From: Bacteroidota bacterium
Lineage (GTDB): Bacteria; Bacteroidota; Bacteroidia; Palsa-965
Assembly: GCA_046335555.1 (NCBI GenBank)
Contig: JBKDHA010000210.1
Coordinates: 11,737 to 75,736 of the forward strand
Reading direction: 5' to 3'
DNA: 64,000 nucleotides
This document shows positions 3,021-24,576 of this stretch, piece after piece (within the stretch, counting starts at the first letter, position 1; each line of letters begins with the position of its first letter). The notes below the pieces were generated by a model. It was not told the DNA's origin. It was given only the letters and a program-made list of their open reading frames with translations, and ran no database searches. The position numbers and the translations under genes are program-made.

Positions 3021-4880
3021 CTACTTAGCTTGTAGCAGTCTGTTCCTGTTAGCCACAGCACTTCGCTGTGCAGCCGGATCAGTTCTTACAAAGTGTCTGA
3101 CAAATTCCTCGCGCAGCACAGGAGTTGCCGTAGTTTCATCGTTTCTGTTGCCTCTTACAAAGCGCAGTGTAACCGGCTGATTTTCTTCGGGGTAATAAAC
3201 CGGGTGCATGGCATAATCGAAATTATCAATATCAACGATTACGCCGTTTACACTGAGAATGCGGTCGCCCGAGCGTAAACCGAAAAGGTTATCGGTAAAG
3301 GCAGTTCGCACATAAAACGCATCATTATTTTCGGCGTAGAATAATGTGAATGTTCCGAAACTAAGTACCGAGTCAATTGCATCAGGAGCATAGGCCCAGC
3401 CGATTGTTTCGAGTGAAGTGACTAACGGAAGTTCATTGCAGTTAAGCACGTAGTTATTGAAAAACGGTTGCACATCTGCACCACTGTTTTCACCAATGAG
3501 TTTGGCCAGCGCAATATTATCGCCACCCGGATTTTGGCTGAACAGCGATAGAAAAACAGATTGCAAACCCTCGGCTTTGTTGTTGCCCGAATTGATGAGT
3601 TCAATATCGAGCAGGAAAACGGTTACCAATGCCCGCGCCCGCAGCGCCGATGCCTGATCGGGAGAAGCAAGTGCACGCGCCAATGCTTTCTGGTTGGAGA
3701 AAGCAATTTTGGGTGCTGTTTCCGCTACTGAAATTGCATTGCGCAGACGTTCCATAAATGCTTCTTCACTTATCACCGAATCACGAACGGCACCCAGCAA
3801 ATTCAGGTAGGCGGTCATGCCATTGCCAAACCACCACATTTCGGGTACAAGTGCCGGCTCTCCGAATAGCTGATCGGAATTAAGGGATGCTGTGGCCGAA
3901 AAAGAAGGCAGCATCCTGAACAAACTTCCTTCTGATTGCTGCATGATCATTTGTGCAATATCGTTTTCGTCTTGCAAGTCGGGCAAACAGTAATAGCCGC
4001 TTCCTACATGCTCAACTCCGCTCCAGCGCATTTCTTTGTTATCGGCTTCATCAAAACGATACATCAGAATAACAGAAAACGGCACTGAACCGGCGGTGAG
4101 TTGCTGCAATGCACTCAACTGCGGCGAGAGTATGCGGCGGATGATTCGTGCGCGGCCTTCGTATTTTGAACCGCTTACTGCAATATGCAAATTGATATGC
4201 CCGTAAGCTGTATTCAATGTATCGGGTGTTCCGTAAAGCAGAGGATGATCGATCAGATGTGCATAACCTGAACTAAAAAACTTATCGCGGCTTTGCGTTT
4301 CACTGTTACAGGTTAATGCCGTTGTAACAAAAAGTTTGGGCGAATGCAGAACAGTAACCCGGTAAGCTGCCTGAGAAGCATAACTGAAACGTCCGACCAT
4401 AAATGCTGGTTGCAGCATAAACTCGGTACCTGCTTCAAACCGCGATGCGGCTGCCTGAGGAACAGTCTGATTTGTTGTTGTTGTTTGTTCACCATCAAAC
4501 ACATCATCCACCCAATACTCTATGCGGCGTAAACTATGTCCTTTACGGGGATGAAACCGAAATCCGTTCGCACGGCGCGTTACTCGTACCCGCGAACCCC
4601 GATCATCTGTCGCATAAATTTCATGAATGAATGATACTGCCGACAGCGTTTTATACACTCCGGGTATTGCCGAAGGAAACGAAAAATCAATAACACGACT
4701 AGTTGCAGCCGGCGGTATTACAGTAACCTTAACCCGATCTTTCTCTTTGGTAACATTCTGTAAATCGATTGTTACTTCACAAGTACTGAAACGCATGTCG
4801 GTCTGGGAACAGACATGGAACGGGGCCAAGGCTAACAGCAACACCAGCAGGAGATTGGTGGTCTGTTTGTTCATGGACAC
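3021..4880 (-). CDS. Peptidase M61-like protein with PDZ domain; catalytic motif degenerate
   Basis: Signal peptide; FSFPSAIPGVY N-domain, LIDHPLLYG, SGVEH; PDZ signature GLRSGDRILSVNG; no HEXXH. Confidence 0.7.
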   Translation of the reverse strand: MSMNKQTTNLLLVLLLALAPFHVCSQTDMRFSTCEVTIDLQNVTKEKDRVKVTVIPPAATSRVIDFSFPSAIPGVYKTLSAVSFIHEIYATDDRGSRVRVTRRANGFRFHPRKGHSLRRIEYWVDDVFDGEQTTTTNQTVPQAAASRFEAGTEFMLQPAFMVGRFSYASQAAYRVTVLHSPKLFVTTALTCNSETQSRDKFFSSGYAHLIDHPLLYGTPDTLNTAYGHINLHIAVSGSKYEGRARIIRRILSPQLSALQQLTAGSVPFSVILMYRFDEADNKEMRWSGVEHVGSGYYCLPDLQDENDIAQMIMQQSEGSLFRMLPSFSATASLNSDQLFGEPALVPEMWWFGNGMTAYLNLLGAVRDSVISEEAFMERLRNAISVAETAPKIAFSNQKALARALASPDQASALRARALVTVFLLDIELINSGNNKAEGLQSVFLSLFSQNPGGDNIALAKLIGENSGADVQPFFNNYVLNCNELPLVTSLETIGWAYAPDAIDSVLSFGTFTLFYAENNDAFYVRTAFTDNLFGLRSGDRILSVNGVIVDIDNFDYAMHPVYYPEENQPVTLRFVRGNRNDETTATPVLREEFVRHFVRTDPAAQRSAVANRNRLLQAK

Positions 4881-18803: not shown

Positions 18804-18880
18804 GTTGAATTGCAGTTTGTTTTTCAAATTATTTCAGAAAAATGTATTCCTCATTTTGTAGTTTTTGTAAATTACACGGT

Positions 18881-20119
18881 ATGAAAAATTACTTACTTGC
18901 TATTGCCTTTGTTCTTGCTGCAAATATTGTTAGTGCGCAGCAAGCAGATCAGCACTGTCAGGCACATGAGCACCTGCAGAACCAGCTTGCCGATCCGCAG
19001 CAACGTCTGATTTATGAGCAAACACAGCAGCGGATGAATGAATGGCTCTTGCTGCATCCAGAAGGCAATACAACCCGAACTACAGAATATATTCCGGTTA
19101 TTTTTCATGTTGTTTACACAAATGCGGCCGGTAATGTGCCTGTTCAGCGACTTTACGAGCAGATACAAATTCTGAATGAAGATTTCGGCGGATATAATGC
19201 GGATTACACAAACACTCCGGGTGTTTGGCAACCTATATCAGGCAATACAGATATTCAGTTTTGCCTCGCACAGATTGATCCACAGGGCAACTGGACACCC
19301 GGTTATGAATATATTCAGACAACCAGTTCCCCATGTCAGAACTCTATTTTGTTTGCTGCTGCCCCGGGCTGGAACCCGAATGATTATCTGAATATCTGGG
19401 TAGCACAATGTAACAATGGCTTATTAGGTTATGCCTCTTTTCCCGGTTCAGCTTCTGCTACAGAAGATGGTGTAGTAATCATGCACAATTTTATTGGGAA
19501 AACCGGAGCGCAGGCACCCTACAACCTCGGCAGAACCGGCACGCATGAAGTAGGACATTGGTTAGATCTCTACCACATCAGCGGCGACGACGGCAACAAC
19601 TGTACCGGCGATGATCAGGTTGCTGATACGCCTCTGCAAACCGATCAGACCTATGGCTACAATGCACCCAACATAGTAATTACCGATGCGTGCAGCCCTG
19701 CAGCACCCGGAGTGATGTGGATGAACTATATGAACTACTGTGATGATACTAGTATGTATATGTTTACCATGGGACAGAAAGCACGAATGTGGGCAGCTTT
19801 AAACGGACCGCGCTCCGGAATTTTATCGAGCACCAAATGTGTACCCACAAGCGTGCACAATTATACAGACCGTGTACAGCCGGCAGTTTTTCCAAATCCA
19901 ACCGCAGGTATGCTGACCATTGAAGTTCCGGCTGGTTTCGGAGCTATTCAGCAAATCACAATTGTTTCGGTAACGGGTACAAATGTGATGCAAATTGCAC
20001 AGCCGGCAATACGCGAAAACAGGCTGGAACTCAATATTTCACAGCTGAGTGAGGGAATTTATTTCGTTGAGCTTTATACCGCAACAGGTCGCAACGTGAG
20101 CAAGGTTGTACGCAATTAA
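18881..20119 (+). CDS. M43 zinc metalloprotease with T9SS CTD
   Basis: HEVGHWLDLYH; NYMNY; VFPNPT CTD; start set at MKNYLL. Confidence 0.9.
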   Translation: MKNYLLAIAFVLAANIVSAQQADQHCQAHEHLQNQLADPQQRLIYEQTQQRMNEWLLLHPEGNTTRTTEYIPVIFHVVYTNAAGNVPVQRLYEQIQILNEDFGGYNADYTNTPGVWQPISGNTDIQFCLAQIDPQGNWTPGYEYIQTTSSPCQNSILFAAAPGWNPNDYLNIWVAQCNNGLLGYASFPGSASATEDGVVIMHNFIGKTGAQAPYNLGRTGTHEVGHWLDLYHISGDDGNNCTGDDQVADTPLQTDQTYGYNAPNIVITDACSPAAPGVMWMNYMNYCDDTSMYMFTMGQKARMWAALNGPRSGILSSTKCVPTSVHNYTDRVQPAVFPNPTAGMLTIEVPAGFGAIQQITIVSVTGTNVMQIAQPAIRENRLELNISQLSEGIYFVELYTATGRNVSKVVRN

Positions 20120-20216: not shown

Positions 20217-21413
20217 ATGTCTGCTGTTCGTCCGGCCACCGTTGCCGATTTGCTCTCTGCCTCCGGCCATTCCAATGCACTTAAATCTATTGCCGAAAAA
20301 GTTATAGCCGGCGAACGCATTACACCCGCCGAGGGTGAATTGCTTTATACTGATGCTGATCTCGGCTTTGTGGGTTCGCTTGCCAATTATATCCGTCAGA
20401 AGCGTCATGGCGATTACACCTACTTCAACCGCAACTTCCATATCGAACCTACCAACATCTGTGTTTACGATTGTAAGTTTTGCTCCTACTCACGACTGCT
20501 CAAGCAAAAAGAAGGTGCTTGGGAACTTTCGGCAGAACAAATGCTGGACATGGTGCGCAAGTACGACGGGCAGCCGATTACAGAAGTACACATTGTAGGT
20601 GGAGTTCATCCGAAAATGGGGCTTGATTTCTTCGCCAAACTGCTTCAGGACATCAAAAATCACAGACCTGATTTGCATATAAAAGCATTTACGGCTGTAG
20701 AACTTTATTATATGTTCCGCAAAGCGAAAATGACTGTTGAAGAAGGTTTGCAATACCTGAAAGATCACGGTCTTAATTCATTGCCGGGTGGCGGAGCTGA
20801 GATTTTTGATGAAAAAGTGCGTGCAATTATTTCAGAAGATAAATGCAGTTCTGAAGAATGGCTCTATATCCATGAAGCAGCGCATAAACTCGGCATTCCT
20901 TCTAATGCTACGATGCTTTATGGCCATGTAGAATCGTATGCCGACCGCATCGATCACATGGAGCGGCTTCGTCAGCTTCAGGATCGTACCGGCGGTTTCA
21001 ACACATTTATTCCGCTCAAATTCCGCAACAAAGACAACCAGATGTCGCACATCAGCGAAGTATCGGTAGTTGAAGACTTGAAGAACTATGCTGTTTCGCG
21101 CATTTATCTCGATAATTTCGCGCACGTAAAAGCCTACTGGCCCATGATTGGCCGGACAACAACACAACTGGCGCTTTCGTTCGGGGTTGATGATATTGAT
21201 GGTACCATCGACGACTCGACAAAAATTTATACCATGGCCGGCTCTGAAGAGCAATCGCCAAAACTTACCACTGCTGAGTTAGTGAAGCTGATAAAAGACG
21301 TAAAAAGGCATCCTGTTGAACGTGATACACTGTATAATGTGGTGCAGGATTACCTCAATATTGACTTCACTACAAATTCATCAACCGAAAACGAGGCTGT
21401 TTTTTTGAATTAA
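20217..21413 (+). CDS. mqnE: Aminofutalosine synthase (radical SAM, CofH/MqnC/MqnE family)
   Basis: TNICVYDCKFC; VHIVGG; SLPGGGAEIF; NATMLYGH; HVKAYW; FGVDDIDGT. Confidence 0.88.
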   Translation: MSAVRPATVADLLSASGHSNALKSIAEKVIAGERITPAEGELLYTDADLGFVGSLANYIRQKRHGDYTYFNRNFHIEPTNICVYDCKFCSYSRLLKQKEGAWELSAEQMLDMVRKYDGQPITEVHIVGGVHPKMGLDFFAKLLQDIKNHRPDLHIKAFTAVELYYMFRKAKMTVEEGLQYLKDHGLNSLPGGGAEIFDEKVRAIISEDKCSSEEWLYIHEAAHKLGIPSNATMLYGHVESYADRIDHMERLRQLQDRTGGFNTFIPLKFRNKDNQMSHISEVSVVEDLKNYAVSRIYLDNFAHVKAYWPMIGRTTTQLALSFGVDDIDGTIDDSTKIYTMAGSEEQSPKLTTAELVKLIKDVKRHPVERDTLYNVVQDYLNIDFTTNSSTENEAVFLN

Positions 21414-21560
21414 TTGATCTTTTTGGGCACTCCGAAGGAAATTTCATTGTCCATATAAATTAAATAAAACACCTACAAATCAATCATTTAGCAAAAAATA
21501 TACTTAAAACGAGTGTCCCTAATAACACTGTTTCAAGTTTTGTTTCGGAGGGTGTGATTA

Positions 21561-21568
21561 TACATTTG
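21561..21568 (+). promoter_or_regulatory. Bacteroidota -7 promoter element
   Basis: TACATTTG with TTTG upstream at 21539-21542. Confidence 0.6.
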
Positions 21569-21572
21569 TATC

Positions 21573-21742
21573 GTGTGACACCCGAAGAGAAGGTTCAGCT
21601 AATAATCTTATCTCACCATGTTCACAGAGGGGTCCTGTAGAACAGCTTCAAAAAAGGGTTTAGAAGACTTTGGTCTTTGCACATCAGGAAAGTTACCCGG
21701 ATACGCTACTGGGGTTAAAGCGTATCCGGGTTTCCTGTTTTT
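21573..21742 (+). ncRNA. Candidate ~170-nt small RNA (alternatively the mRNA of a 42-aa ORF, 21618-21746)
   Basis: Bounded by a promoter motif and a strong U-tailed hairpin; internal hairpin tgttc-acag...ctgt-a-gaaca. Confidence 0.5.
21685..21742 (+). terminator. Long hairpin with U-tract
   Basis: caggaa-agtt-acccggatacgct / agcgtatccgggt-ttcctg-ttttt. Confidence 0.75.
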
Positions 21743-21744
21743 AT

Positions 21745-22070
21745 AAACTGGAGATTGTCGCGAATCTCTTCGTTGGGCTACTCGCGGAAATCCTCATTTA
21801 CTTAAGTAAACTTCTGATTTCCGCTCGGGCGCCCGCCTCAATCTTCACGACAATCTCCAGTTTAGCATTTCAGTTTTTGTCGCGAATCTCTTCGTTGGGC
21901 TGCTTGTGAAATCTCTTTGTAATTACTCTAATACACGATTTCCGCCCGTGTCTCCCCGCTTCAATCTTCTCGATAACTTTCAACTTAGCATTTCAGTTTA
22001 TTGCTGCAAAATCTATTCGTTGGGCTGCTTGTGAAATCTCTTTGTAATTGCAGCGTATATGATTTCCGCC
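21745..22070. repeat. Three tandem ~122-125 bp structured units, progressively degenerate
   Basis: ttcgttgggc at 21769, 21891 and 22016; gaaatc and gatttccgc in each unit; unit 1 closed by a 20-bp stem with one mismatch. Confidence 0.9.
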
Positions 22071-22175
22071 AAGATTTCGCTTCTTTCTGCTTTGCATTTT
22101 ACTTGTTGTAGATAAATGAAATCAGCAGATCAACCAATTTTCAGCCCATCACTTTCTGATTTACCTTTACGCGAT

Positions 22176-22835
22176 ATGATTACAGGTGTAATATTTGACA
22201 TGGACGGGCTGCTGGTAGATTCGGAACCTTGGTGGCGTGCAGCGGAAACAAATGTATTCGGATCATTGAGCCAGGCTCCTTCTGCAAGCGATTTTAAGGA
22301 AATGATGGGCAACCGAATTGAAGAAGTGATTGCCCGCTGGCGCATAAAACATCCCTGGCAGGGCATGAGCGATGAGGCGGTGAAAGTGGCTATAGTAGAT
22401 GAAGTACAACGCTTAGTCACCACCAATGCCCAACTCATGCCGGGCGTTGTGAACCTGCTTGAGCAATTACAGAAAAAAAAGATGCCTGTAGCACTGGCTT
22501 CTTCCTCGCCGCTGAGATTGATTCGCGGTTTGATGCAGCATTACGGTATCTACAATTACTTTCATGTTGTATGCTCGGCCGAAGCAGAAGATTTCGGGAA
22601 GCCGCATCCTGCGGTGTTTATTACAGCGGCCAAGCATCTCGGTATTGATCCAACCGAACTGCTAGTTATCGAAGATTCGTTCAACGGTGTAATTGCCGCT
22701 AAAGCTGCGAGGATGAAATGCCTTGCTGTTCCGACTCCCGAACACGCAGCACAGCCCCGTTTTGCAGCAGCTGATTTGGTATTGCCTTCGCTGACGATGT
22801 TTGATGATGAAGTTTGGGAATTGCTCTCACGCTAA
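22176..22835 (+). CDS. HAD-superfamily sugar-phosphate phosphatase (HxpB/YniC-like)
   Basis: FDMDGLLVDSE; ALASSS; GKPHP; IEDSFNGVIAAKAARM. Confidence 0.9.
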   Translation: MITGVIFDMDGLLVDSEPWWRAAETNVFGSLSQAPSASDFKEMMGNRIEEVIARWRIKHPWQGMSDEAVKVAIVDEVQRLVTTNAQLMPGVVNLLEQLQKKKMPVALASSSPLRLIRGLMQHYGIYNYFHVVCSAEAEDFGKPHPAVFITAAKHLGIDPTELLVIEDSFNGVIAAKAARMKCLAVPTPEHAAQPRFAAADLVLPSLTMFDDEVWELLSR

Positions 22836-23934: not shown

Positions 23935-24576
23935 CTACTCTACCGTTTTTCCGAATCTCCAGATCAAACCGGCTTCGGCAAGGCTGCTAAAGCCACCCCA
24001 TGTGTATCGATTTATATTTGGATCAATAAGAATAGGAATCGAAAGTCCACAAGAAAGTTTCAAAGCAATACGTTCCGACAAATCTGCAATTAAACCAGCT
24101 CCAAATGTACTTTCGAGCGAAAGCACAGGTTTTTGCGAATAGTTATATTCATCATATGAGTAGTAAATTACTGTTTGTTGAGGAAAATTAATTGTATCAT
24201 ACCGAAGGACTTGTGAATTTCGTCTGAGTGAGGCTCGCGTTTGCTGCACTTGAAAAAAAACAAATGGCTTTATACAACTCTGCTTTAGTGCAAACTGCCG
24301 CTCGGCTCCAAGTCTAACGCCAAAATGCTCAGCCGCAGTACGTGCATAAAACCGGTGTTTGTATATATAATACTGGTTATCTGTTATTACTCGATTGTTT
24401 AGATAATGAATTCCGCCGTAAAAGGTAAATTTGGACGAAAGTGAATAACGGAAGTCAGCACCAACATGCAATCCGCTGTGCGCTTCATTCACAAAAACCT
24501 GAACCGAACGCTGGTTTGCTTGCGCATAAACTATACATGGAGCAGCAATCAAAAACGCAAAAAAGAAAAAACGCAT
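23935..24576 (-). CDS. Putative outer-membrane beta-barrel protein
   Basis: Signal peptide; alternating aromatic/Gly beta strands; AGLIWRF near the C-terminus. Confidence 0.65.
   Translation of the reverse strand: MRFFFFAFLIAAPCIVYAQANQRSVQVFVNEAHSGLHVGADFRYSLSSKFTFYGGIHYLNNRVITDNQYYIYKHRFYARTAAEHFGVRLGAERQFALKQSCIKPFVFFQVQQTRASLRRNSQVLRYDTINFPQQTVIYYSYDEYNYSQKPVLSLESTFGAGLIADLSERIALKLSCGLSIPILIDPNINRYTWGGFSSLAEAGLIWRFGKTVE

Follow-up and report, generated by a model that had tools for sequence, protein, structure and literature searches.

What occupies the gap between mqnE and the phosphatase gene that follows it in an uncultured Bacteroidota bacterium? We addressed this question by sequence analysis in a window of 64,000 nt (contig JBKDHA010000210.1, positions 11,737 to 75,736 of the forward strand; coordinates below are those of the window unless a handle of another contig is given). 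The gap starts behind mqnE and extends to an HxpB-like HAD phosphatase gene, covering 702 nt if the first possible start codon of that gene is taken (22116) and 762 nt up to the likely one (22176). An earlier sequence-only reading, which gave the gap as ~750 nt, saw a stand-alone transcription unit here and left the choice between a non-coding small RNA, a dual-function RNA or peptide, and a translation-coupled attenuator. The first of these is supported by conservation, covariation, the absence of an Rfam match and a promoter and terminator that are kept in relatives; the other two are not supported, as described below. Judged on these grounds, the element is real, conserved, structured and non-coding, and we put the probability that 21573-21742 is a discrete stand-alone regulatory small RNA of ~170 nt at roughly 0.55. 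By its sequence features it represents a new family within a familiar class, the bacterial small RNAs.

The predicted RNA (21573..21742) lies on the plus strand, its start being placed from a -7 promoter box and its end from a U-tract. A stretch of 181 nt folds with a minimum free energy (MFE) of -54.8 kcal/mol, against -42.5 +/- 4.0 kcal/mol for 200 dinucleotide shuffles (z = -3.07), none of which folded as well. The 5' part of the fold is a multi-helix domain (21573..21684) closed by the 5-bp helix P1 (21573-77 with 21680-84). It contains P2 (21580-83 with 21656-59), the variable P3 (21587-21614), the hairpin P4 (21619..21644) with its 7-nt loop AGGGGUC (21628-21634), and the hairpin P5 (21663..21678). 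P3 derives from the fold, P1 and P2 from the fold together with covariation. Next comes a predicted intrinsic terminator (21685..21742) with a 6-bp outer and a 13-bp inner stem (21685-21737), an 11-nt loop (21708-21718) and the tract UUUUU (21738-21742). Both the internal hairpin and the terminator of 13+6 bp with U-tract that the sequence-only reading had described are found at these places. A simple terminator scan of the window made no call at this terminator, probably because its loop of 11 nt falls outside the 3-8-nt limit of the scan.

Homologues exist, as both BLASTN and covariance models show. The stretch is single-copy in its own genome (G000) and is not dispersed. With BLASTN it is found in three of the 26 genomes of the same genus, at identities of 88, 87 and 74%; these close relatives (G026, G017 and G021) form with the source genome the four-sequence alignment A1. 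A covariance model built from the same four sequences (R1) matches 17 of the 35 genomes of the family, counting G000, some of them weakly and in a terminator-like hairpin only. A second model of the 3' core, made from 12 sequences (R2), matches 16 of the 35. Five weak R1 matches (L021, L022, L023, L025 and L027) and the R2 match in G007, which covers the terminator only, consist of a terminator-like hairpin with no GGGUCCUG core and were not counted. Taken together, the two models give 15 credible genomes, to which unfiltered searches of the mqnE locus add four (G012, G011, G008 and G015), in each of which the GGGUCCUG core sits where expected. This brings the credible members to 19 of the 35 genomes, made up of 15 of the 27 in genus g1 (G000 included) and both of those in g2; none of the six g3 genomes is among them. 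One member, G013, is unpublished; it is included in this count and in the statistics of the 14-sequence alignment A6 described below, and excluded from R1, R2 and the statistics of the 12-sequence alignment A7.

Beyond the family the searches returned little. The order comprises no genomes other than the 35 of the family, and 150 further Bacteroidia genomes (147 outside the family and three RNA-less ones of g1) gave no match under stricter filters. A pattern scan over the genomes of 185,579 species yielded three loci, namely the equivalents of those in G017 and G021 and one chance match on a Lachnospiraceae contig, where the similarity is confined to the search pattern. The corresponding scan of metagenomes gave 25 loci with one true member, contig L064 (50.1 bits); L051 (22 bits) and L059 (18.5 bits) were rejected as members, having neither the terminator nor the context. 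By these searches, the element is confined to one uncultured Bacteroidia family. All copies, in the 19 genomes as well as on L064, share the strand of mqnE and the HxpB-like HAD gene and lie between the two. Nine loci without the RNA were examined (G002, G004, G005, G006, G007, G016, G018, G019 and G028): there, the gene after mqnE overlaps it by at most 14 nt or starts at most 166 nt 3' of it, and the two look like an operon. The mqnE gene was not found by this query in G022 and G025, and the locus was examined in one of the six g3 genomes.

The fold is shared by the members. Single-sequence folds of 18 of them, computed independently, mostly give a P1-closed domain with P2, P3, P4 and P5 and then the terminator, and a GC-rich hairpin with U-tract forms the 3' end of all members. 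Every member also carries the P4 core CAG-N2-5-GGGUC-CUG, including those in G010, G014, G012, G011, G008, G015 and on L064; the exception is a second copy of the RNA in G027. The loop of the terminator always contains GGGG, as UGGGGUUAA, CGGGGUAA or AUGGGGGAAA. The conserved nucleotides are located in the hairpin loops and not in the junctions.

Further support is provided by covariation. RNAalifold predicts 49 pairs from four sequences, ten of which show compensatory change. For the 3' core we used a MAFFT alignment of 12 sequences (A7) that was fitted to no structure. In this alignment 82.3% of the cells are paired, against 33.8-46.3% after sliding of the partners; in 17 of 33 pairs both bases vary, and none of 500 shuffles reaches the observed covariation score. 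Changes on both sides are seen in nine of the 13 inner terminator pairs and in four of the six pairs of P5. P4 behaves differently: four of its eight pairs are invariant and the loop sequence GGGUC is constant in all 12 rows. In the model-fitted A6 (14 sequences), which leans towards structure by construction, 87.8% of the cells are paired (36.6-43.2% when slid) and both bases vary in 36 of 49 pairs. These include four of five pairs in P1 and four of four in P2, two helices whose support comes so far from this model-fitted alignment. When MAFFT and RNAalifold were run on 14 full-length sequences, P4 and the terminator were recovered and nothing else, since the 5' part aligns poorly by sequence.

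The combination of invariant loops and covarying stems points to selection on the RNA itself, not just on the terminator. This bears on the possibility that the unit is a functionless promoter-hairpin-terminator cassette, either the harmless relic of an insertion or a mere insulator between mqnE and the HAD gene. Its patchy occurrence within one genus would fit (the 15 of 27 g1 genomes mentioned above), as would its absence from eight examined g1 loci (G002, G004-G007, G016, G018 and G019), in which mqnE and the HAD gene are close or overlapping, and the accumulation of dispersed palindromic repeats beside the RNA. The RNA, however, is present once per genome rather than dispersed, and its loops and stems are maintained across members whose flanks have diverged beyond alignment. 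We therefore regard a functionless cassette as decidedly improbable.

Upstream of the RNA, a promoter of the Bacteroidota type was found at the coordinates named by the sequence-only reading. It comprises a -33-like TTTG (21539..21542, plus strand), kept in G026 and G017 and changed to TTTA in G021, and 18 nt further the -7 box TACATTTG (21561..21568, plus strand), which is of the TAnnTTTG type that forms the Bacteroidota -7 consensus. Taken by itself, the pattern TTTG-N17-21-TAnnTTTG is at chance level, with three occurrences in the window against 2.54 expected. The promoter call rests instead on conservation across loci: by eye, a TAnnTTT(G/A) box lies 3-12 nt 5' of helix P1 in 17 of 18 homologous loci. 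Two more motifs on the plus strand precede this promoter. One, TTTCATTGTCC (21442..21452), consists of columns that are invariant in A1 and is kept in the three closest relatives. The other, AACGAGTGTCC (21508..21518), lies ~55 nt before the predicted RNA start; for this AACGAATGTC-like motif all 18 loci read by eye have the core TGTC at the same distance, and 13 of the 18 have GAATGTC. Several genomes have the motif within the loop of an A/T-rich hairpin that follows mqnE. As the signal of a regulon (AACGARTGTCY) it was rejected, with four sites in its own genome against 15 for the reversed control. The IHF-like match WATCAANNNNTTR at 21478-21490, to which the sequence-only reading had drawn attention, is partly kept in relatives and does not exceed chance (three in the window against 4.46 expected).

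Could the unit be translated instead? The open reading frame (ORF) of 42 aa proposed earlier, containing Cys, does exist with the translation given then (21618..21746, plus strand) and spans the unit, which is what a small-protein gene or a dual-function RNA would require. The frame is not conserved, however, and belongs to no Pfam family. In G026 the ATG is lost; a 4-nt deletion falls inside the frame in G026, G017 and G021, together with one extra 1-nt insertion in G021, in relatives that are still 74-88% identical. A stop codon ends the homologous frame of G017 after 13 aa, and the longest frames that begin with ATG in this stretch measure 4 aa (G026), 18 aa in a different frame (G017) and 10 aa (G021). 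Moreover, the substitutions track base pairing and not codons. The peptide is on these sequence comparisons already refuted for the family as a whole, and we see hardly any chance that a small protein or dual-function RNA explains the unit. The ORF is evidently an accident, a chance frame that should not be annotated as a gene. The translation-coupled attenuator falls with it: as the ORF is not conserved there is nothing for an attenuator to couple to, and no conserved alternative pairing with the terminator was seen in truncated folds of 12 members.

A different cis-acting explanation deserves more attention, namely that the element is the 5' leader of the HAD gene, either a riboswitch or an attenuator controlled by a protein or RNA, in which the domain senses a signal and the terminator decides on read-through. 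It may then represent a new riboswitch class that controls the sugar-phosphate phosphatase. The architecture is suggestive, as a closed multi-helix domain is directly followed by a terminator, always 5' of the same gene and in its orientation. In six genomes (G003, G014, G012, G021, G010 and G011) the HAD start is found 16-75 nt past the U-tract, and the close or overlapping arrangement in RNA-less relatives implies that the HAD gene normally depends on upstream transcription. Other observations argue against a leader and at the same time for a stand-alone RNA. First, the terminators are unusually strong, with a hairpin free energy of -29.5 kcal/mol here and -17.5 to -24.4 kcal/mol in 11 other members. 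Second, truncated folds of 12 members (MFE only and not exhaustive) leave the 5' strand of the terminator unpaired or locally paired, with no conserved upstream partner. Third, the terminator loop keeps its sequence while the stem covaries, which suits a mature RNA better than a disposable expression platform, where such a sequence would be needless. The position of the conserved nucleotides in hairpin loops, not junctions, weighs in the same direction. All in all, we consider a leader possible, if unlikely.

The distance to the HAD gene adds to this picture. In the other genomes, at least nine, 190-610 nt of unrelated sequence part the terminator from the HAD gene, which again favours a stand-alone RNA over a leader. 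The intervening sequence is a dispersed repeat in G000 and G017, an ORF of 92-96 aa in G023, G001, G009, G020 and G013, and a second RNA copy in G027. The ORFs start ~40 nt 3' of the terminator (L018 1705-1986, L020 1704-1988, L016 1118-1408 on the minus strand, L017 1107-1385 and L019 1710-1988), and for the three on which NCBIfam was run (L018, L020 and L016) it recognises only a C-terminal sorting domain of the type IX secretion system (T9SS). The tandem paralogues of G027 also favour a stand-alone RNA. The second, divergent copy (L013 1177-1350, minus strand) lies ~150 nt 3' of the first and comes with a -7-like box of its own; it keeps P1, P5 and the terminator, with another hairpin in place of P4. 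The same genome has one more long palindrome, at L013 1070-1177, for which Rfam gave noise from microRNA (miRNA) models.

Also relevant is where transcription and translation of the HAD gene begin. The gene can be annotated at 22116..22835 (plus strand), with 22176 as the most likely start codon, 21 nt 5' of the DMDG motif; this start is favoured because the genes of relatives (217-226 aa) begin at the equivalent codon. Within 22116-22178, the first 60 nt of the annotatable ORF are probably non-coding, and a -7-like box, TACCTTTA (22162..22169, plus strand), precedes the probable start codon by 6 nt. Among 16 RNA-bearing loci such a box is seen by eye 3-8 nt 5' of the HAD start, in the strict form TAnnTTT in seven and as a one-letter variant in eight. 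This is a hint that the HAD gene would be transcribed independently, in which case its mRNA may be leaderless, and we count the box among the reasons to prefer a stand-alone RNA to a leader.

For the stand-alone RNA, the following course of events can be proposed. Transcription would start at the RNA's own Bacteroidota-type promoter and stop at the strong intrinsic terminator, with both ends as predicted above. The RNA would then be released as a stable molecule that acts in trans, its two exposed G-rich loops (GGGUC and GGGG) being the active parts that might bind either a protein or C-rich segments in other RNAs. Incidentally, the terminator would also keep transcription of mqnE apart from that of the HAD gene.

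Several observations weigh against a stand-alone RNA. A search of sequencing runs returned no RNA run that contains the stretch, and run X1, which is labelled RNA-Seq but is probably DNA and of which, as for the other three runs compared, contigs only were used, has no contig over 21282-21751. The spacing of 16-75 nt in six genomes leaves little room for a separate promoter and would suit a 5' leader. Only seven of the 16 loci have a strict -7-like box 5' of the HAD gene, and start codons in Bacteroidota are commonly preceded by A/T-rich sequence. Strict synteny in all members would equally be expected of a cis element, although in a family this narrow it may simply be inherited by descent. 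In addition, no target or partner was found. When both loops were scanned for duplexes with 3884 crude gene starts of the source genome, no site stood out; the best duplexes reached -24.9 and -27.9 kcal/mol, with means of -13.0 and -14.0 and a standard deviation of 2.6-2.7.

The P4 hairpin core occurs three times in the genome: in the RNA itself, at one site inside a gene, and in an intergenic hairpin on contig C196. The latter (CAACAG-GACCCAA-CUGUUG, coding strand, G000:C196 about 24490-24520, or L081 about 4491-4521) is the mirror image of P4, with GACCCAA in its loop and a 9-nt complementarity to the invariant GGGUCCUGU. It lies 25-45 nt 5' of an AAA ATPase gene that closes a contractile-injection-system cluster (CIS_TMP). 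Among six other genomes with an orthologue of this ATPase, the hairpin is kept in two, G025 and G017, the latter with a changed stem; G026 has an altered form, and G021, G027 and G029 lack it. As a conserved target it was rejected, and it is best left as an unexplained coincidence.

The partner might also be a protein. The RNA could serve as decoy or scaffold for a hitherto undescribed RNA-binding protein of this lineage, with the GGGUC and GGGG loops as paired binding sites, in a manner that may resemble the titration of CsrA by CsrB/RsmZ. The invariant stem top of P4 (CAG/CUG), which does not covary, may in that case be read by sequence. We hold this proposal to be rather improbable.

Turning to the neighbours, both flanking genes score above the cutoff of a family model. 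MqnE (20217..21413, plus strand), the aminofutalosine synthase 5' of the RNA, scores 446.5 bits with NCBIfam TIGR03700 (cutoff 434.55) and contains the Pfam domains Radical_SAM and CofH_C. The 3' neighbour scores 228.1 bits with NF008087 (cutoff 191), contains HAD_2 and is an HxpB-like HAD sugar-phosphate phosphatase. On L044, L045 and L073 (G004, G006 and G005) the HAD gene overlaps the 3' end of mqnE; this arrangement suggests a functional link between the sugar-phosphate phosphatase and the futalosine pathway. Further upstream, an M43 (pappalysin-like) metallopeptidase with T9SS sorting domain is encoded at 18842-20119, and orthologues of ~414-462 aa also precede mqnE in relatives.

Part of the gap is taken up by repeated sequence. 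Three tandem copies of a dispersed palindromic repeat are found at 21754..22049 on the plus strand (TRF: period 123, 2.4 copies; unit 21749-21871). The unit has 28 matches on many contigs of its own genome, sharing a core of ~82 nt that forms an imperfect palindrome. In this region the metagenome contigs have elevated depth and numerous loose ends. The same dispersed repeat is located 3' of the RNA in G026 and G017 as well. The 123-nt repeat is a REP/MITE-like element (repetitive extragenic palindrome/miniature inverted-repeat transposable element), separate from the RNA.

To our knowledge, almost all regulatory RNAs described in Bacteroidota come from Bacteroides and a few Flavobacteria, and Bacteroidota are without Hfq and CsrA. 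They mostly do not use Shine-Dalgarno pairing either. Given the lack of Hfq and the little use of Shine-Dalgarno pairing, it is an open question how small RNAs of this phylum find their partners. The element described here adds an RNA family with a covariation-backed fold and two invariant G-rich loops from an uncultured lineage. The natural on/off contrast between 19 genomes with the RNA and nine examined ones with operon-like flanking genes could give clues to its role. With a range of just one family and no cultured host, the element is of modest practical value.

How does the element compare with known RNAs? Rfam 15 (4227 models) gave no match at the gathering threshold in the whole 64-kb window. 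For 21380-22130, with E up to 10, the sole match is to mir-5, antisense to the terminator and with 19.3 bits where the threshold is 75, and at six loci of other members, with E up to 1, there was miRNA-model noise only, away from the RNA. No described family is therefore matched, 6S included, in line with the sequence-only reading, which could not assign the unit to a known family. A literature search, of which the sources were seen in part, returned no such RNA; a query for riboswitch candidates gave general motif-discovery papers only. 6S RNA (RF00013, and 6S-Flavo RF01685), which the sequence-only reading had named for comparison, has a similar size of ~170 nt. Neither model matches at E up to 10, though, and 6S forms a rod with a large central bubble whereas the RNA here has a branched four-helix domain and a terminator. 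6S is also a housekeeping RNA, in contrast to an element that is missing from the locus in nine related genomes.

Riboswitches and other leaders share with the element a P1-closed multi-helix domain directly before a terminator, 5' of one constant gene. The element differs in that no antiterminator is conserved, the terminator loop is conserved, and long variable inserts precede the gene in most members; nor did any riboswitch model of Rfam match. Two further likenesses concern design only. SgrS of enterobacteria is a small RNA of sugar-phosphate stress that encodes SgrT and activates the mRNA of the HAD phosphatase yigL. Our RNA has a similar size, an ORF of ~40 codons and a HAD sugar-phosphate phosphatase associated by position. 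Unlike in SgrS, however, the ORF is not conserved, Rfam gives no match and the link to the phosphatase is one of neighbourhood only.

The second likeness is to RsaE/RoxS of Firmicutes, trans-acting small RNAs with C-rich motifs in several loops. Here the motif is G-rich (GGGUC, GGGG) rather than C-rich and could as such not target Shine-Dalgarno-like sequences in the way RsaE/RoxS do, and there is no relationship by sequence or in Rfam. In design, nonetheless, the two have much in common: a stand-alone gene of 100-200 nt with its own promoter and intrinsic terminator (here as predicted), stems that covary around conserved loops, and a short motif that is repeated in at least two hairpin loops, including the terminator region.

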